Below, piece after piece: positions 10,601 through 62,623 of a stretch of 64,000 nt of DNA. The translations under genes were made by a program, and so were the position numbers. How positions within the stretch are numbered: the stretch's first letter is position 1; each line of letters begins with the position of its first letter. The DNA is from a virus (Duplodnaviria > Caudoviricetes), in the IMG/VR virus record IMGVR_UViG_3300035696_000004, positions 155,773 through 219,772 of that record. The stretch is one strand, 5' to 3'. Under the pieces are notes generated by a model. The model had not been told where the DNA came from. It worked only from the letters and a program-made list of their open reading frames with translations, and searched no databases.

Positions 10601-11978
10601 CCTTTTGTCCACTTGATCCGTTGTGTCTCCCGACACGCTCTATCAAGCCGGTGCGATTCCTGGCACCCGCCTCAGGCTTTCCCTGAGGAGCAGACTATAT
10701 CTTCACCTCCAGCATGACCTGGTAAGGTGCTTCCTATTTCCCCGGAGATGGCTATCTCCCGTGCACCTAAGCACTGACCCACTTGAGTGGTACACCGTGG
10801 TAAGCGGTTAGTCGTTGAACTCCTCCCATTCTCGCTGTCGTAGCGAGGGCAGGGGTTAGCTGCGGATTACCCAATCTTTGCCTCTTTTACCGTACCTGAA
10901 TGATTAGTTCAGCCCTCACGATCATTTCTAATCATGAGTTGGTGTGCAAAGCTCTCAGGGACTTCCCGTCAATTAAAGAAGGTTTCATTAACTATTTCTA
11001 ATTAATGAGGCGGGTTGTGAAAATCCATCCATCCAGATTCTTGTCGGTATCTAATCGACTTAAAATACTGGAACGATCGACATTAAAATGCCTAGCACAT
11101 TGAGTCAACGATCCAAACTCCATTGTTTTCCCGCCTTTACTAGCGCACAGCGGGATTGCGCTGGTGCCCTTCAGACCGCGATCGTAGCGATACGGTGTTT
11201 CTGAATAGCTGTCTCGAACGTTGAATTCTTTATCGGGATAAATCTCATTCCCGTACTGCGCTAACACAGGGATTGATTTTCCTGGAGCCCCGTATAACTG
11301 GTGGCGCTTCAGAAGTTCCCTTGTCGAATAAACTTCCTCTATGGAACCGTTCGAATCTTTCACTGTAACCATGTACCTCGACGGGGGTACCAGTTCAGTT
11401 CTATTTTCATAAAACCACGGTTCAGGGTCATTCGCACACCGGAACTCATACTTCCCGGCGACTAACTTCCCAAACATTTTTGGTCGCAGATCTACTATTC
11501 TGACGTCTTTCCCTAATCCCATGAATTCAGCAGCTTGAGTTATCGAGTGGAAATAGGACACTTCTCCTGTGAAGTAATCTCTAACTCTACACGGGATGTT
11601 GTCCCGTCTCAACCCGCTATTGACAGCATGGTAATTATTCCCGGAGTAGCTTGTCCATTCGAGGTTTTCGTACCAGTTATTTCCTGGATGAGCGTCGATA
11701 TGGTTCACAACGGTAAAATTATCAGGATCGGGATTATAAACCCATGCCAAAGCGACTGCTCTATGCACGGGCAAGGTCTCTGTCTTGGATCCTCTGAAAG
11801 TATCCACGGCGAGATAGCCATTAAGAAGATAAGGGGTGAGCATTATCTTTCGTTCTACTGAAACGATTGTGCCCACTCTGTCCACGGCATAATGTTCATA
11901 TCCCGGAATTATCCGAAACATTTCATCTTCCATTCATGCTCCTTTCAACTAAAGGGATGAACGGACTTTCACAATTCC
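10601..11978 (-). mobile_element. Group I intron with HNH ORF in the nvRNAP beta gene
   Basis: P aattgacgggaa, Q aatccgcagc, R gttcaacgacta, S aagatatagtc; 5' exon ends in U with a U-G pair in a P1-like hairpin; ends in G; splicing restores GFKLTDTAGG|KGVI (RpoB GDK..GRHGNKGVI). Confidence 0.88.
10998..11933 (-). CDS. Intron-encoded HNH homing endonuclease (NUMOD4-HNH-NUMOD1 type)
   Basis: IIPGYEHYAVDRVG; VHRAVALAWV..VVNHIDAHPGNNWYENLEW; C-terminal EFGSLTQCARHFNV helix-turn-helix. Confidence 0.88.
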   Translation of the reverse strand: MEDEMFRIIPGYEHYAVDRVGTIVSVERKIMLTPYLLNGYLAVDTFRGSKTETLPVHRAVALAWVYNPDPDNFTVVNHIDAHPGNNWYENLEWTSYSGNNYHAVNSGLRRDNIPCRVRDYFTGEVSYFHSITQAAEFMGLGKDVRIVDLRPKMFGKLVAGKYEFRCANDPEPWFYENRTELVPPSRYMVTVKDSNGSIEEVYSTRELLKRHQLYGAPGKSIPVLAQYGNEIYPDKEFNVRDSYSETPYRYDRGLKGTSAIPLCASKGGKTMEFGSLTQCARHFNVDRSSILSRLDTDKNLDGWIFTTRLIN

Positions 11979-13190
11979 ACCACCAGCCGTATCAGTCAGC
12001 TTAAACCCGATGTTCGGCGTGATCTCGTATTCAATGACGAATTCGATTCGCCAATCATCCAGAGCTTCCTTGCGGTAGTTCTTTTTGATCGGGTCACGTT
12101 CGGCCATCGTATTGTGGCCGACTACCGAAATGGCTTCCACTTCCATCCGATGAAGTTCCCGGGTGATGTTCAACTTCCCGTGACGCTCCCTTCGGATGCG
12201 GCGCAGCTCATCCAGAATACCTTGGTAAAACTCTCGACGACCTTTGTCGTACTTGAGCAACTGGGTATCCATTCCGACGGGTAGGCCGACCGTATTGCTT
12301 CGGTTCTCGTGCCAGACACGGATATCTTTGATGCGACCACCCGGTCCCGCGGCATAAACGAGGTCATCGAAGACATAGTTTATTTTCCGCAGACCATAGG
12401 CACTTTGCTCGACCAGTGCAAGATCCAAGTCATAATCTCGCAGCGCCAGCAAGAGTCCGTCTGGTCTTACCTCTTCCCCAATATCAGGGAATGCTTTGAA
12501 AACCTCGTCTGTCCCCATCAGGTTAAGTGGGAAATTATTGAGCCCAAAGGAAGCCGACCTAACTTCGTACGTCTTGAACCGAAGCTCTGGCAAGACATCC
12601 TCGCAGATCATGATTCCGTCTTCAGCGACGGCTTCATGTGAGAGATAGGCGATATTGAGCTCACGCCCAAAGCAATAGTTTCCGTTCTCCGTGACAGCCG
12701 GGGAATCAAGAAAGATTTCTCCTTTTTTGATTTCTTCTCCTCGACGGAGTCTGGAGTACGGTTTTTTCTTGACGTAATCGAAACCGAAATACTGATGCTG
12801 AGAACAATAGTTCGTCAGATTGATCATCCCAATCTCGTTATTGTCCTCTCTTTCGTACAAGACCACCGTTTGCGGATTGATCTTGATCGAGTCAACATCA
12901 TTGGTTCTCTGATATCGTTCGATCTTTTTCAGGATACGCCCCTGATGAGGCATCTTCACTGAGAAGGTATATTTCCCGAATTCACGTTCCATCCCTGTTT
13001 GAATTCGGCGTTCCGTCATCCCCTTTATGATCAGGTACTGTCCGATATGGCTTGCAAACATCTGGACCCGTGAACTGGAAATCGCTCCAATGAACGGATT
13101 CAGGCCGCACGTATCGAGAAACTCCCGCCGGAGTTGGTTCTGTTCTCGATACCATGGCAAATCACTATACGTCAGCGTTTCTTGACTCAT
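11979..13190 (-). CDS. rpoB: Non-virion RNAP beta C-terminal subunit, exon 1
   Basis: SSSRVQMFASHIGQ, GRELNIAY, EDGIMI; frame stops 9 codons into the intron; spliced product about 715 aa. Confidence 0.85.
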
Positions 13191-13243
13191 TACAGAACCC
13201 TTGTTTAGGTTTTGAATCTTCTTACTGGACACAACTACTAATT

Positions 13244-25375: not shown

Positions 25376-27253
25376 TTAGCGGCGAGCCCAGCGGCCGAAT
25401 CCGGCTTGGCTGACGGTCTGGCCGTTTTGACCATATTGCGATGCGAACATGCTGCCCGAGTCGCGGCCGCCGATGACGGCGGACTGACCATAGCGAGCGG
25501 TAGCGCGCGGTTGGCCGGCGTTTTCGATCGTCGGCAGTTGGATGGAAGCGTTCAGGCCAGCGGCCAGGGCGCCACGTACCAGCGCTTCGAAGAAGGCCGG
25601 GTTGAACGTTTGACGACGGTACATGCCGGTGATGGTCGGACGAACCAGCTTGCGGATGATGTTTGCCCGCAGCGAGTTCAGAACCACTTCCGGAGAACGG
25701 CGATCCAGCAGCGAGTCGGACCAGTCCTTGACGACGGACAGATCGGTATCACCGGTGGCGTTCAGAACGTACAGGTGATCGATTTCGCGCAGGTCGCGCA
25801 TCACGCCTTCGGCATCGCGGAAGAAGCCCTGATGGATACCGACCGTGTGATCCAGGAACACAGCACGCGGATGGTCACCGTAGATCTTCAGGAACTCGCC
25901 GTTGGTGAGGAAGTTGGCCGTGTCGAAGATGCGATCGATTGCATCGGTGTCACCCGAACCCGCCAGACCGAATTCGCTGGTCAGCCAGGTGTTGGCGCCG
26001 GCTTCGGCGACGTCGATGGATACCAGCATGCCGGGATGGAAGTACGCCGCGATCATGTCGTGGTGGAATTCCGGGCGATAGGTATCCGACTTGGTCGGGA
26101 CACGTTCTTCCACACCGTCGATTTCCAGACCGATAGCGCCGATGTCCTTGAAGTCCACATCGGACGTACCGAACTGAGCCGGACGGAAGGCTTCAGCCCA
26201 CAGGTTGTTTTCGGCCAGACCGAATGCGGGGATCAGTGCCAGCAGCTGGCTGCCGAGGGACGGCAGTTGGGCGCAGATCATTTCGGTGATGACGTACTCG
26301 GCACGGTAGGTTTGTTGGCTCAGGACTTGGCCGGTGGAGCGAGCGAACGGGTTACGTGCTTGCGCATTGGCCGGTTCGTAGACCAGGTTCATGAAGCCCT
26401 TGACGGTGGTGATCACTTCGGTGCGGTCAACGACAGCGTTGCGGCGATCGCGTTGATTTGCGGAGGCCACGAGTTGTGCGATGGTTTCACCACGGATCGG
26501 CAGGCCGACGGCATCGGTTTCGGTCGGTGCGTTGAAGGCCGGCTTGATCACCAGCTGAGCATCGTTCTTCGCCAGGGCGATGTTCAGGCCGGGGAAGTTG
26601 CCCGAGATTTCTTCCAGCGCCATGCAGCAGGCTTGCAGCGCGTTGGCGGTGGTGCGGTGAACCAGCTTGTCGTCTTCGATGTTGTAGTCGCGCGGAACGA
26701 CTTCGATGTCGGCATCGAGTTGACGCATGTTCGGGTACACCAGGGCAACAGCGTTGCGCACTTCATCGATGAAGGCGCCGTCGGCGGCAGCCGATGCGTA
26801 ACGCGGGTCTTCGAAATTCACGCCGTTGTGCGGAACGAACTTCGATTGGAACGGATCGGAAGAACCTTCCAGCAGCAGCGTATGGAACGCGACGGCCGTC
26901 GGCTTTTGTTCGCCGACCGGGCGATAGGTGACAGCGACGATCAGGGCAGACAGGGCGATGTTGCTGTTGTTGTTCTTGTCCAGTTCGAGGAAACGCATTT
27001 CGAACAGGTCGGAGAGCTTCTTGGCCGGTTCCGCCATGGCTGCGCGCAGGCTGGAGAGGATGGCCGATGCGGGATTGGTACCGATACCGCGATGAGCGAC
27101 ATCGCCGAGACCGGTCCAGGAGAACGTCGAACCATCATCTTGTTCGGCGGTACGACCACGAGCAGAGCCGCCCAGCGGACGGCGAGCAGCGCCCAGTTCT
27201 TCTTCGGCAGCGGCATTGGCGGTGGTGGTTTTTTGGTTTACTTGCAGTACCAT
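25376..27253 (-). CDS. chmA: Chimallin (phage nuclear shell protein)
   Basis: 625 aa, strong codon bias, immediately upstream of the beta' N gene as in phiKZ gp54/gp55, own promoter and terminator. Confidence 0.75.
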   Translation of the reverse strand: MVLQVNQKTTTANAAAEEELGAARRPLGGSARGRTAEQDDGSTFSWTGLGDVAHRGIGTNPASAILSSLRAAMAEPAKKLSDLFEMRFLELDKNNNSNIALSALIVAVTYRPVGEQKPTAVAFHTLLLEGSSDPFQSKFVPHNGVNFEDPRYASAAADGAFIDEVRNAVALVYPNMRQLDADIEVVPRDYNIEDDKLVHRTTANALQACCMALEEISGNFPGLNIALAKNDAQLVIKPAFNAPTETDAVGLPIRGETIAQLVASANQRDRRNAVVDRTEVITTVKGFMNLVYEPANAQARNPFARSTGQVLSQQTYRAEYVITEMICAQLPSLGSQLLALIPAFGLAENNLWAEAFRPAQFGTSDVDFKDIGAIGLEIDGVEERVPTKSDTYRPEFHHDMIAAYFHPGMLVSIDVAEAGANTWLTSEFGLAGSGDTDAIDRIFDTANFLTNGEFLKIYGDHPRAVFLDHTVGIHQGFFRDAEGVMRDLREIDHLYVLNATGDTDLSVVKDWSDSLLDRRSPEVVLNSLRANIIRKLVRPTITGMYRRQTFNPAFFEALVRGALAAGLNASIQLPTIENAGQPRATARYGQSAVIGGRDSGSMFASQYGQNGQTVSQAGFGRWARR

Positions 27254-27336
27254 TTTTCGTTCCTTGTTTACTGTGGAGAGATTATACTACTTTGTTACTT
27301 CGTCGACGAGGAGAAACCAAAATTCTTGGTTCAGTT

Positions 27337-30616: not shown

Positions 30617-32755
30617 TCAATCCTCAAACATGTAGTCGTAATCGCTTACCAGACGTGTCAGCTTCTTGTTGTCCATGTAAACACCTAGTGACTCCAGGAT
30701 GATATAAAAAACCGAGCACGTGTCATGCACCAACTTACGAATACCGGCGGCTTCGAGGATCTCTTTTGGCATCCCTTTGCTCGAGACGATCTGGTCCGGA
30801 ACATACAGGGTACCAATGTAGTTTTTCTTGTTCCGTTCGATCCATTCGGTAAATCGTTTTGCTAAGTCACGGTCTTCCATATTGGCGATCCATTCCCGAG
30901 TCTTTGCGGAAGAGTTCACAATGGTGGTGACTTTACGACACGTGTACGGTGGAGGATCCACAAAACCATACTTCGGGCCAAATACATCGTTCCAAAGCGT
31001 GTAGTGTGCGTAATTGGATTCCGTCTCACCTTTAGTGTAGGCCTCAGCGGGTTTGATCTGAGCGCGACGTAAAAACGTCGTGCTGCCTTTTTCAATATCG
31101 GCAATCATAGCTCGCTCGGTCTCACAGATATGTTTCAGAATCGCTTTGATCTTGATCTTCTCACCATTGATGATTGACATCATTATATTTGACATCATTT
31201 TCTTCGCATCTTTGATGATCTCTACCGGAGCATTGGAAGACTTCAGATGCACACCTTTGATTTCCTCCTTGAACTTTCCGAACACATTCCCTTCTTGGCA
31301 ACTGATGAGTGCAAAGTAGTGCTTTGCGACTTGTGTCGTAACAAAGGCATCAAACTTGAACTCATTCTTCATGGCGATCTGATGCAGGCGCTTCTTCTCA
31401 ACACCGAAGTTAGCGGACATCTTTGCCAGGATGTGCGTGATGGTCTGCGATGCGAGCCAAATCATCGTAGCGGCAGTAGCCATACAGGGTTGATCAAAAC
31501 CAATTTGACCACGATGCCATTCTACCCAGTCCTGAACTGTGAAGATGGTCGAGTCTGTGTCAGAGGTCACTGCGCAACGACGTACACTGCGCGGAAACCA
31601 ACCGACAGAAGCGGGGACATTGTCTGTAACCCAGAACGCTCGGATGAAATCACTATACCCGCTGATGGTTCCCCAAGCATTTTCGACCGTGGCTGCAATC
31701 AGCTGTTCCGTCTCCGTCCCAACGATCTCCTTCTCTTCTTTACCTTTGGTCTCTTCGCAGCAAATCTGAACAGCCAGGATTTTGTAATCCTCATGGCGAC
31801 TCTTAATGACTTCGCTTGGCTTCTCAAATGTGCCCGTCCCTTTAGCCGTCAGTTTATCCAGGAAGGTTCTGACGAATTCAGGGTTAAAGACGCGCAGGAA
31901 GTACATGTCACCCACGTACACGAAAGCCGAGCGTTCGATATCGTTGAGTTTTCCGATATAGTTCTCAATCTTCTGCATCGCGACCCGGTTCCGCCAGTAC
32001 AGTTTGGCAGAGTACTTGATGCAGTCGACTGTTTCCTTTACCGAAGGTGCGCGGATACCGTACTTGATCATCACACGTTCGAGTTCAACCAGATCCGTTT
32101 GGGTAATGATGGACGTGATATTATTCGTAACGATCTCGGGCGACCAATAATGCCGGTTGCCGCAGAGGAACTTTTCGTTGTTCGCATTGCCATACCCTGA
32201 GGTAGACCGGCAATTTGATGTCAACGTGTTGTGGGCAGTCTTGTTGTACAACGGTGTCGATGGCGTGACGTGTCCACCAGAGATAGCATTGTTCCCGAGC
32301 TTCTTGTTGTTTTGCTCGTGATTCTTGATATCTTCCAGTTCCTTGTTCTTAGCCATCTTGGCAGCGAACATTTCTTTCTTTGCCTTTTTACGGGCAGCTA
32401 CGCCATCATCGATATACAAGCTTAGCAACGACTGTTTGACGGTGCAGTTCAGATACGTCGTCAGCGTCGGCGCAATCAGATCACCATTATTGATAGCACC
32501 TCGAATGTACCCCCAGAGCGTTCCTTCCTTGACTTCACGGTCCCCGTTCTCTTGGCGCTCCAAATACATGACATTCGGATCTTTGAAAGGGCGTTCGCCG
32601 GTAGGGGAAAGCAAATTCTTGATATGGTTCTGGCAATCCTCAAGAGGTCTGCCTGTCATTTTGTGCAAATACAGAGAACCTTGCTTGAGATAGTGGTTGA
32701 GGATACCAATATCTCGAGTATAGTCCTCTGATGCTAATACGAATGGGTTATCCAT
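30617..32755 (-). CDS. Family B DNA polymerase, polymerase-domain subunit (phiKZ gp50-like)
   Basis: Motif B KLGNNAISG, motif C SDTDS, KHY; no obvious exonuclease domain, consistent with the split polymerase of this group. Confidence 0.85.
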   Translation of the reverse strand: MDNPFVLASEDYTRDIGILNHYLKQGSLYLHKMTGRPLEDCQNHIKNLLSPTGERPFKDPNVMYLERQENGDREVKEGTLWGYIRGAINNGDLIAPTLTTYLNCTVKQSLLSLYIDDGVAARKKAKKEMFAAKMAKNKELEDIKNHEQNNKKLGNNAISGGHVTPSTPLYNKTAHNTLTSNCRSTSGYGNANNEKFLCGNRHYWSPEIVTNNITSIITQTDLVELERVMIKYGIRAPSVKETVDCIKYSAKLYWRNRVAMQKIENYIGKLNDIERSAFVYVGDMYFLRVFNPEFVRTFLDKLTAKGTGTFEKPSEVIKSRHEDYKILAVQICCEETKGKEEKEIVGTETEQLIAATVENAWGTISGYSDFIRAFWVTDNVPASVGWFPRSVRRCAVTSDTDSTIFTVQDWVEWHRGQIGFDQPCMATAATMIWLASQTITHILAKMSANFGVEKKRLHQIAMKNEFKFDAFVTTQVAKHYFALISCQEGNVFGKFKEEIKGVHLKSSNAPVEIIKDAKKMMSNIMMSIINGEKIKIKAILKHICETERAMIADIEKGSTTFLRRAQIKPAEAYTKGETESNYAHYTLWNDVFGPKYGFVDPPPYTCRKVTTIVNSSAKTREWIANMEDRDLAKRFTEWIERNKKNYIGTLYVPDQIVSSKGMPKEILEAAGIRKLVHDTCSVFYIILESLGVYMDNKKLTRLVSDYDYMFED

Positions 32756-32860
32756 TTTCTGTCCCCTTTATGCACAACATGAGTCAGCAATATAAAAAAT
32801 TAAATGAGGGCATAAAAAGCGAGGCGTTAGCCTCGCTCAAATAAAGAAAAAAAGAATAAG

Positions 32861-33232
32861 AAAAAATAGGAGAGACCCGAAGGTCTCTCCCGTAACTTCC
32901 AGCGAACCCCATCACTAAGTTGAAACAGCCAGGCAGAGATCAACCAAGGAACTCACGAAAGGGGGGAACGTGAGCCAGTATCGTCCGGTGCGTGACGGAC
33001 AACTGTTTAATCCCGATTAGACCTCAAAGTCCGCCGCTAAACAAGGTATGGAAAACAGCGCACCAACCTGGCGTTCAACAAAACAACTCCTTGGTTCCCA
33101 CCAAAGTTCACACTAACCTTCCGCGATGACTCAGCGTACCAATCAGTGTAAGGACCGTTGCGTGCCCTTCCTCAAACAATTAGACAGAATGATAAAAAAT
33201 CACCCGCCTAATCTACTCTCCACACAGTATAT
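32861..33232 (-). ncRNA. Candidate structured non-coding RNA with terminator
   Basis: ORF-free gap with three long-range helices (two crossing), local hairpins and a UUCG terminator at 32869-32890. Confidence 0.45.
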
Positions 33233-33637
33233 CTAACTCGATACCGTGAGTGTGACGGAAGTGAAGCCGTTTGCACTCAAAGCGTTCTTGATATCGGTCA
33301 GCTGATCCGGTGTGACATTCCCGATGACAGCCGTGATGGTCTTCATCGAGTAAACCACAATCGATGAAGCATTGACCCATGGCACGCCTAGATATTCGAT
33401 GTTTCCATTGGCGTGTTTGATCTTCAGCCAGTTGTACTGGGTCGGATCGTCGGGTGTACCAGAAGGCAGATACGGATACATCCGGGTGTGTTCGGCGTAG
33501 GTGTCCGTAAAGAGATTGGCGGTCGCCTGGTCAAAGACGGCCATGACGGTAACGCCGGTGTAGTCTGTGCCGAGTAAGGTGGAAGGGTATACGCCAAACG
33601 TATACGCGGTTCCTACCTGAAAATCATACGCTGCCAT
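33233..33637 (-). CDS. Conserved phiKZ-like hypothetical protein
   Basis: 134 aa, SD aggag. Confidence 0.7.
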   Translation of the reverse strand: MAAYDFQVGTAYTFGVYPSTLLGTDYTGVTVMAVFDQATANLFTDTYAEHTRMYPYLPSGTPDDPTQYNWLKIKHANGNIEYLGVPWVNASSIVVYSMKTITAVIGNVTPDQLTDIKNALSANGFTSVTLTVSS

Positions 33638-36579: not shown

Positions 36580-37584
36580 TTAGTCAAAGACAATACCGCT
36601 GCTACCCACGACATCGCTGGAGTCGAGGATCTTCGCCGGCGCCAAGCGAGCCTGGCGATTTTCTTCCAGTTCGTCGATCGTCTTGGTGAGGCGGTCGATC
36701 GCCGGAGCGATCACACCATCAGACAGCACGAAATGGATCGGCCATTCCGATACTTCGCGATCGATGTTGTCCGGGAAGCCCGTGAACTGGATGTCCACCA
36801 TTTCCGGATACGCTGCGTTCTCGCGATCGTTCGTCAGCGTTGCCAGCGACACGACCTGGCCGATGTTGGTCGGGTAGTCAGTGCTGCCTTCCACGATCGA
36901 CAGCGCGGTCAGCATCGGAGCACCATCGACCGTCGTCGGACGGAGCCACTTGTAGAGGTCTTTCGAATCCATACGGCGGTTTTCACCACTGTAGAGGATC
37001 GACAGGACCGTCACGAGTTGCTCGATCTTTTCGTTGATCTTGGCTTCCGAGACGAGACGCGAATTTTCAGCGTAGAACACCGCCAGCGAATGCTTCGTCA
37101 CCGCCACGTTACCCATGAAGCTCTTGAGGGTAGCGCGACTGTTGCGAGCGAACTTGCGAGTGGCGGCATCGCCGACCGCGACCACGATCACGTTGTGGTC
37201 CTTCTGGAGGAGTTCTGCGATGAGTTCCGGAGCCAGGCCCGATCCCGTACCGCCGGAGGCCGAGGTGATGATGATGTTCAGGTCACTCGGACGATGCTTT
37301 TGCAGGATCTCCTTGATACGAGCTTGGTATTCCGGATGGTTCTCGGCACGTTCCTGACCGGAGCCGTCAAGTTCCGGGAAGAGGTACAGCTTCGCCGGGT
37401 CGATGTTGGACGGCAGGTCGCTGTCGGACGTATCGATGAACGTCGTCAGAATGTTGGCAAAACCGGGGGCTTGTTTGCCGGCGTACTGATCGAGAGCAGC
37501 CGTGATCGCCACGCCAGTGCCGCCAGCACCGTAGATGCGAATGGTGTTTTTCTTACGCGTGATTTGAGCGACTTGATCGTTCAT
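36580..37584 (-). CDS. phuZ: Phage tubulin PhuZ
   Basis: YGAGGTG, IDTS, GSGQER and tubulin signature GGTGSG; acidic C-terminal tail. Confidence 0.92.
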   Translation of the reverse strand: MNDQVAQITRKKNTIRIYGAGGTGVAITAALDQYAGKQAPGFANILTTFIDTSDSDLPSNIDPAKLYLFPELDGSGQERAENHPEYQARIKEILQKHRPSDLNIIITSASGGTGSGLAPELIAELLQKDHNVIVVAVGDAATRKFARNSRATLKSFMGNVAVTKHSLAVFYAENSRLVSEAKINEKIEQLVTVLSILYSGENRRMDSKDLYKWLRPTTVDGAPMLTALSIVEGSTDYPTNIGQVVSLATLTNDRENAAYPEMVDIQFTGFPDNIDREVSEWPIHFVLSDGVIAPAIDRLTKTIDELEENRQARLAPAKILDSSDVVGSSGIVFD

Positions 37585-37823
37585 GTCTTCTTTCCTTGTT
37601 TAAGTGTACGACTTTATTAAAGCGTGTATGTCTGAAGTACCCGCCTTTATGTAGGGGTATACCATTGGAGTATATTGTTAAAAAACTCCTTACCTGAGCA
37701 TATCACTCAGTTTCTTTGCGTCATCCTTCCCCTTTTTTTTATTCCCGTTTAAACGCAATTAGGTAGACTAACTATGAGGCCCCGTAACCGTAAGGTCAGC
37801 CAGCTTCAATGTCTTGACAGTTT

Positions 37824-38685: not shown

Positions 38686-39282
38686 TTCCTGGGAGAGGCC
38701 TTCGCAGGCCTCTCCTTATGCTGCCATTCTCAAATACCGTCATAAAGGCCTAGGCGGTAGCCTAGGCTAGAGTAAGTTATTTTTTATTTTATAATTTATA
38801 TTTGTATGACATTCAGCAGTATCTTACTCTAATAAAGGCAATGAGAGGGGGCCTCCCGGCCCCCCAGACTAGATTGGGTTTTAGTTAGCCAGTCCTCCTC
38901 GTCACTCCTTCCGTTCCACTCCAGTCGTTCCTCGTCGTCCTTTTTATTTATGCAAATTATTTTACATATCATGTAAAAAAATAACAGGGTAAACTTTCTG
39001 AGTGGTTCAGGTAGACTAGGAGTGACGTAGTCGTCTCCTATGTCTCCTAATCAAAGATATCTTTACCAGCGGCCTTCAAAGCCGCTGCAATGTCCTTTTA
39101 TGACCTCATATTTCGGTTTTATGTTCCTGAGAGAATTAGATAGGAATAGATAATCTATTTGATTGATATGAAAACAGTGTAGTTAACAGTGTGAATTGGG
39201 CGCGAGCCCTCCCCCACCGCGATCCCCGGCCGCCCGGCGAGGCGCGGGTCCAGGGGGCGCACCCCACGCCAGGAGCCTGAGC

Positions 39283-60944: not shown

Positions 60945-62623
60945 CCTTCTGTCCACTTGATCCGTTGTGTCTCCCGACACGCTCTATCAAGCCGGTGCGC
61001 TTATTGGCACCCGCCCTATGTCACCATAGGGAGCAGACTATATCTTCACCCTCTTATTCAAAGTAGGGTGTTCCCTGTTTCCACGAGAGCTATTGCTCTC
61101 CGTGCACCTAAGCACTGACCCACTCGGGCTGTACACCGTGGTAAGCGGTTAGTCGTTGAACGTTCTCCATGCCCTCACGGGTGTAGGAGCTTCGCTGCTA
61201 AAGAGATCCTTAGGATCTACGGTTGTCTCTACCCTAGTCTTTTCAAACCTACTCAGAGAGCACGTCTATGCTTTCGCATTCCGCTTTGGTGTCTAGGATG
61301 TAACGAGAGTTTCCAGCAATTAAGGGAAATACATTCAGTCATTTCTGACTAAACGGACTATGATGTTTACAGCACTTCAATAACCCAGTTTCCATACGGT
61401 TGTTTTGTATCTATGCGGTTCTTGAGAGTTTTCTTATCTAAACCAAGAAAACTCCGCAACTGGCGAGAACTCTTAAATATCTTGAATTCTCTGGTCATTT
61501 GATTCAGAACCCTAAAGCACTTGGCTTCGTTAAACGCTACAAAACCAAATTCTAAAGGCCAGTCCTCCAACATGAACTTTCTGAAATAATAACCACCGAC
61601 CGTTTTTGGTGTTTCGGATCGCATGACAGTATAAATCCTATCGATCGTCACGCCTGTGAGAACAGACAGAGATGAGAGGGTTTTTGCCATGATTTCCTTA
61701 CCAGTTTCCACGTGTAAAGCTTGAAAAGGTCCGCGCTCAATTCTCGGAGCGGAGATTCTTTCAAACGACGTATAGTACCAGTCGCTCTTACCGTCAGTGC
61801 GGAATTCGTAAAGACCTAAAAACAGATTTGGCACTACTGTTCCGTTGAGCACACGTTTGATCGGCTTTATTGCTCCCTTTAAACCGATATCTCGCATACC
61901 TTCCGAAATAGACGAATAGTTTTTCACAGCGCCAGTCTTAACATTCCTAACTTCACAAGGGATGTTATCGGGTCTCAGATTCGCATTGACAGCGTGAATG
62001 ACATTTTCTCTAGACGTCACCCATTCAAGATTACTTAAATCAAGGTTGAGTTTATCGCCGTCCCTGTGATTTACGTAGATTTTATTAATTGGATCATCGT
62101 TTACGACAAAGGCTCTGGCTAACAGAAGATGGACGAGAACTTGCCGCCAACGTTTTTTGTCTGGATCGAGAATGCTAACGACCGGATACCCGTAGGGTCC
62201 TATGCGTTCCGACAAGATCTTTCCAGAAAACATTGATTTGACTTTCCCGACATTATTGACCGAGAATCTCGGAAATCCAGGAATTATCCTAAATCCACCA
62301 CCCGCCTCGATCGGGGAATCAAAAGTCATTAGATGTCCGCATTTGAATTTGAGAACTTTTGACGCTACAGGAACGAAAGCAATTTTCCTGAGGTCCTCTA
62401 TTCCAAAACACAAAACATCGTAATGGCCTAAAAGCTCCTCCCAATGTTCACCAGATACGATTTTTCCATTTAATACGGCCGTGTTGCTTGGAACAACCGA
62501 GCTTACCGTACTTCTTTCCCTGAGTAATCGAATTGCGCAAGTCGAGTTTGAAGACATCCCCTATACTCCTAGAATAGGTATCACAGGAGAATAGTAAAAT
62601 ATCAAAAAACCCTTACATCTTTA
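60945..62623 (-). mobile_element. Group I intron with HNH ORF in the vRNAP beta gene
   Basis: P aattgctggaaa, R gttcaacgacta, S aagatatagtc; splicing restores GVGD|KAVFANQMK; 3' core nearly identical to the 10601-11978 intron. Confidence 0.88.
61367..62557 (-). CDS. Intron-encoded HNH homing endonuclease
   Basis: IIPGFPRFSVNNVG; VHLLLARAF..YVNHRDGDKLNLDLSNLEW; several NUMOD1-like repeats. Confidence 0.88.
   Translation of the reverse strand: MSSNSTCAIRLLRERSTVSSVVPSNTAVLNGKIVSGEHWEELLGHYDVLCFGIEDLRKIAFVPVASKVLKFKCGHLMTFDSPIEAGGGFRIIPGFPRFSVNNVGKVKSMFSGKILSERIGPYGYPVVSILDPDKKRWRQVLVHLLLARAFVVNDDPINKIYVNHRDGDKLNLDLSNLEWVTSRENVIHAVNANLRPDNIPCEVRNVKTGAVKNYSSISEGMRDIGLKGAIKPIKRVLNGTVVPNLFLGLYEFRTDGKSDWYYTSFERISAPRIERGPFQALHVETGKEIMAKTLSSLSVLTGVTIDRIYTVMRSETPKTVGGYYFRKFMLEDWPLEFGFVAFNEAKCFRVLNQMTREFKIFKSSRQLRSFLGLDKKTLKNRIDTKQPYGNWVIEVL

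Follow-up and report, generated by a model that had tools for sequence, protein, structure and literature searches.

The described systems nearest in mode to the RNA analyzed here would be, by analogy, the anti-Shine-Dalgarno (anti-SD) base-pairing sRNAs of bacteria; RsaE is counted among those with C-rich loops. Two groups invite comparison: (i) the cuckoo/alpha-r14 sRNAs of Alphaproteobacteria (RSs0680/CcsR and NfeR1), which likewise carry anti-SD hairpin loops on freely varying stems (PMC4615179, 10.1101/2025.11.14.688489), and one of which, NfeR1, silences many mRNAs via three anti-SD loops (10.1101/2025.11.14.688489) and (ii) Staphylococcus aureus RNAIII and other C-rich-loop sRNAs, which likewise include a large multi-hairpin RNA and in which, according to passages of PMC4615179, UCCC-type loops start the pairing with ribosome-binding sites (RBSs). 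The defining features of both groups were absent: cuckoo RNAs are composed of two to four adjacent simple hairpins, each with the loop CCUCCUCCC, and reside in bacterial genomes (PMC4615179), whereas the present RNA was predicted to be about 310 nt long, multibranched, phage-encoded, and without CCUCCUCCC, with loops reaching the A-rich flanks of RBSs; in contrast to RNAIII, it gave no sequence or model match, had no embedded ORF, and had the phage's own nucleus-building genes as predicted targets.

Non-coding RNAs are also on record for nucleus-forming phages: passages on phiKZ and PhiPA3 list small RNAs from the 5′ UTR of gp40 and the 3′ UTR of gp298, 17 5′ UTR candidates, and ChmC-bound peaks (PMC10914365, PMC11077065), but the small RNAs named in those texts map elsewhere in the genome and do not reach the length of the present RNA. 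ChmA synthesis in phiKZ is stopped by an antisense oligomer directed at the chmA SD (PMC12571901). A literature search found no description of the present RNA or its locus, the supplement of PMC10690425 (10,000 viral RNA candidates) aside, and the passages searched in a 2025 review mentioned no RNA regulator (PMC12908238). The RNA is probably a real, undescribed phage ncRNA.

Genomic setting

The window, i.e., the whole 64,000-nt stretch of DNA analyzed, was part of a 219,772-base contig of a nucleus-forming phage (a chimallin-encoding chimallivirus). The closest cultured phage was Burkholderia phage FLC9 (54% polymerase identity), followed by Ralstonia phages RP12 and RP31, and in the polymerase tree the window's phage formed its own long branch inside the clade with RP12 and FLC9 (support 100/99). 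The gap between the SH3DP and polymerase genes (Table 1) was 477 nt long (32756-33232) and held no ORF of more than 45 codons, in agreement with the first-pass annotation, which had placed an RNA in an ORF-free gap before a DNA polymerase gene. That annotation had also found no likeness to tRNA, tmRNA, RNase P, or a group I core and had proposed a covariance scan against Rfam; the scan, run with gathering and E-value thresholds, returned only terminator-like noise from the gap and nothing from five relatives, ARAGORN gave no match in the gap, and known ribozymes and riboswitches went equally unmatched.

Several other elements were seen in the same material. Two group I introns (Rfam RF00028; 75.9 and 66.9 bits) lay at 10670-11032 and 61014-61392 on the minus strand; they had near-identical 3′ ends, and the first was located downstream of the RNA polymerase beta-subunit ORF. 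A group I remnant in the SH3DP–polymerase gap was rejected, no family match being found there by the same scan that detected these two true introns. No tRNA gene was found by ARAGORN in the genome of the window's phage, while tRNA-like genes were clustered in the locus of relative L108. Other gene-free gaps that folded strongly were located at 38686-39282 of the window (overlapping in part a possible 199-aa ORF) and at 84142-84424 and 142070-142371 of the genome, with z-scores of -6.5, -15, and -4, respectively (rough values from eight shuffles). Outside the window, at about 78326-77930 (minus strand) of the genome contig, a second large structured RNA followed the same promoter motif and began with a hammerhead-like core.

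Table 1 Coordinates of the predicted ncRNA, its predicted parts, neighboring genes, and candidate targets within the window
Feature	Position	Strand	Remark
SH3DP protein gene, upstream neighbor	33233..33637	-	PF20287; phiKZ gp49 homologue
Divergent family B DNA polymerase (divDNApol) gene, downstream neighbor	30617..32755	-	PF20286; phiKZ gp50 homologue
Chimallin (nuclear shell) gene	25376-27253	-	
PhuZ tubulin gene	36580-37584	-	
RNA polymerase beta-subunit ORF	11952-13190	-	
Hairpin with promoter T-tract in loop	33178..33213	-	Upstream of the putative +1
Phage promoter-like motif	33173..33199	-	T-tract, ~11 nt, TAAT, TNTG ending at the putative +1 G
Predicted ncRNA, ~313 nt	32861..33173	-	Putative +1 at G33173; putative 3′ end in terminator U-tract
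H1, 5′ hairpin AAGGGC...GUCC	33150..33169	-	Like those of L013, L023, L024, and L108
H2, long hairpin	33108..33151	-	Anti-SD loop in most relatives, without one here
H3, GNRA (GGGA) hairpin	33089..33106	-	Pair probability 0.57-0.66; sequesters most of the Y5′ strand
Multibranch domain closed by helix X (33079-33066/32934-32919)	32919..33079	-	Predicted fold
H5 hairpin, pyrimidine-rich loop	33028..33064	-	CCUUGUUU at 33046-33039, complement of AAACAAGG
Hairpin with loop UCACGCAC (32995-32988)	32976..33005	-	CGCA(C/A) loop
H7 hairpin, C-rich loop 32968-32958 fully unpaired	32951..32975	-	Complementary to AAAGGGG-type RBSs
Intrinsic terminator	32861..32891	-	10-bp stem, UUCG loop, U-tract; stem-loop 32891-32868
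Second hairpin with TTTATGCC (these phages' terminator-like motif) after it	32809..32838	-	Outside the RNA
Separate promoter-like motif for DNA polymerase gene	32773..32799	-	From sequence; resembles the promoter class, exact pattern unmatched
Candidate target AAACAAGG in chimallin RBS	27262..27269	-	Predicted complementarity to H5 loop
Candidate target AAACAAGG in PhuZ RBS	37594..37601	-	Predicted complementarity to H5 loop
Candidate target AAACAAGG in RNA polymerase beta-subunit ORF RBS	13199..13206	-	Predicted complementarity to H5 loop

Boundaries of the putative transcription unit

Boundary signals were computed at both ends of the unit. The promoter-like pattern, which was partly derived from the ncRNA's own site, had 13 raw matches in the genome vs. 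one to five in shuffles; it marked 10 distinct genome sites, of which eight were intergenic and three lay 18–27 nt before a start codon, and a similar motif was present at the opening of the gap in several relatives. In phiKZ late promoters, transcription begins at the G of TATG (PMC4666361), and by analogy the +1 of the ncRNA was placed at 33173; the motif here reads TTTG, not TATG, and the start and timing of transcription are therefore putative. At the 3′ end, the UUCG terminator with a U-tract that had been proposed to close the unit was indeed there. No clear terminator was found between SH3DP and the unit in the window's phage.

The hairpin around the promoter T-tract would be within the RNA only given read-through or a second start near 33221. 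Promoter T-tracts in or beside an inverted-repeat loop were also seen in L088, L089, L059, L020, and L014, with differing arms; whether as DNA or as RNA, the inverted repeat might form a hairpin linked to the RNA's promoter.

Predicted fold of the RNA

The minus strand, on which the RNA had been placed from the start, folded better than shuffles, with a z-score of -3.5 with the terminator (vs. -1.05 on the plus strand) and a modest -1.9 without it (vs. +0.65). A CsrA sponge on the opposite strand was rejected, as terminator, folding, and loop counts all favored the minus strand. The prediction of a structured minus-strand ncRNA of ~300 nt that ends in a terminator and resembles no known Rfam family is supported, and it is very likely that the gap encodes a real one.

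The computed fold most likely combines nested hairpins with a multibranch domain that helix X closes, without a pseudoknot. Within it, two bases were paired inside the H5 loop, which was otherwise largely unpaired. Much of what had been picked out by eye was present in the sequence: the local hairpins at 32952-32974 and 32983-33000, the strands of helix Y (33096-33085/32953-32942; 12 bp with two G-U pairs), and helix X (33079-33067/32933-32919), which was the dominant long-range stem, most of its pairs having a probability of 0.96–1.0 and three near bulges one of 0.46–0.75. That inspection had caught helices but overlooked the anti-SD-like loops, the CGCA(C/A) loop, and the 5′ hairpin that recur in relatives. 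The outer helix proposed at 33111-33104/32909-32902 had a probability of 0 in the nested ensemble and was rejected.

The further claim that Y crosses X in a pseudoknot was supported neither by energetics nor by a chance test nor by the FLC9-type relatives. The pairs of Y had a probability of 0 in the nested ensemble; since crossing pairs are beyond the folding program, an energy test was applied to Y as well. Imposing Y instead of X cost 13 kcal/mol, and freeing both Y strands with X kept cost 20.6 kcal/mol vs. about 16–17 kcal/mol gained from Y stacking, leaving Y beside X net unfavorable by 3–5 kcal/mol before any pseudoknot loop penalty, with a wider gap at 15 and 25 °C; because these energies are approximate nearest-neighbor estimates from nested folding, with no crossing pairs in the model, Y is called unsupported and nothing firmer. 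Its 5′ strand was taken by the GNRA hairpin 33106-33089, able to fold immediately upon transcription, and the nested helix 33025-33011/32950-32936 occupied its 3′ strand. In favor of Y, a perfect helix of at least 12 bp with at most two G-U pairs arose in only 4% of shuffles, and since Y would bring together an SD-like AAGGAG and an anti-SD-like UUCCUU, an alternative conformer is conceivable; against it, crossing helices matching Y in stability arose in 29% of shuffles, another crossing helix in the window's RNA was slightly more stable, crossing helices of such stability lay at unrelated places in relatives, and the crossing stems shared by the FLC9-type RNAs were only 6–7 bp long, none being in the Y position or comparably long. 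A pseudoknotted RNA, possibly a switch or a ribozyme (no Rfam ribozyme matched), is thus very improbable, and the pseudoknot lead can be dropped for this locus.

Relatives and probable family membership

The polymerase searches for relatives yielded 42 and 37 loci. Relatives with more than 43% polymerase identity mostly had a gap of 250–850 nt after SH3DP and distant ones a gap of ~100–115 nt, while the corresponding gp49–gp50 gaps of phiKZ (201 nt) and PhiPA3 (184 nt) were without the architecture of the window's RNA; in L026, inside the clade, the gap was lost (15 nt; L026:2985-3001). The structured gap stayed behind SH3DP in L080, L052, L078, and L086, where other genes precede the polymerase, and had genes inserted on both sides in RP12 and FLC4-3B; its persistence after SH3DP despite inserted genes means that it is no polymerase leader.

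Covariation was computed in two groups of relatives, both with nested folds: (i) the FLC9-type, in which both sides were altered in 19 of 74 pairs and 93% of alignment cells were paired, vs. 38–46% with partners slid and with 0/500 shuffles, and (ii) the RP12-type, in which 19 of 62 pairs changed on both sides. This covariation was good but below R-scape grade, because each group comprised only five to six related sequences. The covariance models built from them, R1 (FLC9-type) and R2 (RP12-type), missed each other's members, R1 reaching only L003 (E 1e-4), the family's divergence thus being too great for models of this small size; neither scored the window copy, whose membership is accordingly called probable and rests on position and shared motifs.

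The window's RNA is likely homologous to this SH3DP-linked RNA family of chimalliviruses (FLC9, RP12, and related types), judging from its position after SH3DP, its own promoter and terminator signals, the order H1–H2–H3–multibranch–terminator, the pyrimidine-rich loops, and the CGCA loop, the shared motifs having been recognized only after the sequences had been inspected. A pattern of H1 plus the following GGAUYGC, built from relatives, led to a previously unseen member (L108) in that gap; the H1 pattern alone was not above chance within the window, and a promoter-plus-H1 pattern search gave no new members. The H5-type CCUUGUUU loop directly after the closing helix was also found in FLC9-type RNAs and L003, and the CGCA(C/A) loop occurred in 8 of 31 sequences (RP12-type, FLC9-type, L003, and the window copy) vs. 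0.4 in shuffles.

The homologue search and covariation analysis that had been proposed for the window's RNA gave covariation in the FLC9-type and RP12-type relatives but left the window copy without a close homologue. The best hit of a protein search for close relatives of the window's phage had 45% identity, so no close homologue was available for covariation of the window copy's own helices; blastn against phages and nhmmer against the loci and the phage's own genome found terminator hairpins only, the exact H7 pattern had no match in viral contigs, and MAFFT of all types together (44% identity) gave no usable alignment.

Three further observations concern related loci. An extra anti-SD-bearing insert was present in H2 at L049:1403-1500. 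The E. coli phage Goslar (MK327938 176468-176766; L170:2914-3212) had a 298-nt SH3DP–polymerase gap with a folded unit of ~190 nt, in which UUCCUU and CCUCCC loop segments preceded the annotated terminator and for which blastn found no relative; it may be a small version of the window's RNA in a laboratory model phage outside the clade. In phiKZ (L169:4377-4578), PhiPA3 (L090:2795-2979), and Psa21 (L173:3434-3549), GUGAAUGU...UUGAUGUG followed by a terminator-like hairpin was located 5′ of the polymerase gene; this is a separate conserved element of small size in the corresponding position.

Anti-SD loops and candidate targets

Pyrimidine-rich anti-SD-like loops were enriched in the family, with 30 in 27 gaps vs. 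6.7 in shuffles and five on the opposite strand. They were unevenly distributed: L080, L052, and others had three to four CCUCC loops each, some members had no anti-SD loop in the predicted fold, and the window copy had the fewest clear CCUCC-type loops of the family. Matches of at least 7 nt between the H5/H7 loops and RBS windows numbered 9 vs. 0–1 and 5 vs. 0–2 in control windows. Across all 224 genes of the genome, RBS windows were matched equally often by letter-shuffled loops (p 0.18 and 0.34) and as well or better by the loops of other phages, so most of the H5/H7–RBS match is generic. Outside the RNA, the octamer AAACAAGG had 15 occurrences, seven of them being RBSs, namely those of chimallin, PhuZ, the RNA polymerase beta-subunit ORF, dCTP deaminase, and three unknown proteins.

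A swap test compared own with swapped loops on each phage's own orthologue RBS for 10 genes in 12–15 independent lineages; the loops were hand-picked, and the phuZ match in two phages was known before the test. Own loops matched the chimallin RBS over 7.3 nt vs. 6.4 nt for swapped ones (p 0.002; p 0.008 without the window's phage). Weaker signals were computed for an RNA polymerase subunit (p 0.033) and PhuZ (p 0.035), none for SH3DP (p 0.74), and own loops were above average in 9 of the 10 genes; after correction for 10 genes, only chimallin survived. The single loop–RBS matches included 14 nt in RP12 phuZ and 11 nt in L003 phuZ and in L029 chmA. As far as the sequences go, the loops may co-vary with their targets (chimallin p 0.002, other genes 0.03–0.7, the genome-wide shuffle test being not significant), and a shared host-driven RBS style could be the source of the loop-to-own-RBS match.

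Alternative explanations

The preferred reading, to which we give a probability of about 0.5, is a trans-acting RNA that would pair with the RBSs of the phage's nucleus-building mRNAs. The same RNA might instead be aimed at host mRNAs, as a generic anti-SD sponge aiding host translation shut-off, the phage match then being due to a shared RBS style; this is unlikely, since the phage's strongest RBSs would be struck too and since the matches extend into flanks unread by the 16S tail and follow each phage's own chimallin site, even though the generic fit of the loops to purine-rich RBS windows and the three to four CCUCC loops of several members speak for it. We regard as similarly unlikely a protein-binding scaffold or decoy, in which the U/C-rich and CGCA loops would bind S1, Hfq, or phage ChmC and not mRNA: the CGCA and H1 loops are conserved yet not anti-SD, the RNA is far larger than base pairing requires, and PhiPA3 ChmC binds unannotated short RNAs (PMC11077065), but the tracking of each phage's chimallin RBS by the loops would be left unexplained. 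Protein binding is compatible with pairing to RBSs, and both can coexist.

A cis-acting element, either leading the polymerase mRNA or serving the SH3DP operon as its 3′ UTR, would have H7 mask the polymerase RBS on read-through. The H7 loop was complementary to that RBS (32769-32763) over 7 nt, SH3DP and the unit were not clearly separated by a terminator here, and the polymerase gave p 0.036 in the first run of the swap test; the p value was 0.08 in the stricter run, however, and the polymerase RBS ranked only 18th of 222 for H7. Two terminators plus a separate promoter-like motif intervened between the ncRNA and the polymerase gene, and other genes followed the unit in six relatives. On these last two grounds a riboswitch or cis leader of the polymerase was rejected, and we give a cis role as a whole little chance. 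An even slimmer chance is left for the gap holding no functional RNA, i.e., a decayed copy, a promoter/terminator spacer, or a small ORF: the covariance models missed the window copy, the z-score of the core was only -1.9, and 13–24 codons could be read from 33111 or 33079 behind the SD-like AAGGAG, yet promoter, terminator, and three family motifs were all intact, the start and SD of such an ORF were buried in X and H3, and the SD was not seen at that place in relatives; the small ORF was rejected.

Proposed role and implications

Under the preferred reading of a trans-acting RNA, the gap would give rise to an independently transcribed RNA of ~310 nt, belonging to a fast-evolving family found in RP12/FLC9-like chimalliviruses immediately downstream of SH3DP. 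Its stems would act as a scaffold displaying pyrimidine-rich loops, and the loops would pair in trans with the RBSs of the phage's own mRNAs, that of chimallin above all, with the mRNAs of PhuZ and RNA polymerase subunits as probable further targets; occlusion of the RBSs would then lower or time translation once the nucleus is set up. Since the loops match the RBSs of two of the phage's own genes, those for the nuclear shell and the tubulin, the RNA may control the timing of production of these proteins. The broadest form of this proposal is more tentative: a clade-wide RNA of lytic phages might co-evolve with the RBSs of nuclear-shell, spindle, and RNA-polymerase mRNAs and act in trans to time (or escort) the building of the phage nucleus, which, if true, would be a layer of post-transcriptional control so far undescribed in nucleus-forming phages.

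Related units are present in cultured phages, namely Burkholderia phage FLC9, Ralstonia phages RP12 and FLC4-3B, and possibly E. coli phage Goslar, so experimental testing is practical. Nucleus-forming phages separate transcription from translation, and little is known of how the translation of exported mRNAs is tuned; a conserved RNA with loops following the chimallin RBS is a concrete, testable candidate regulator of nucleus size and timing.
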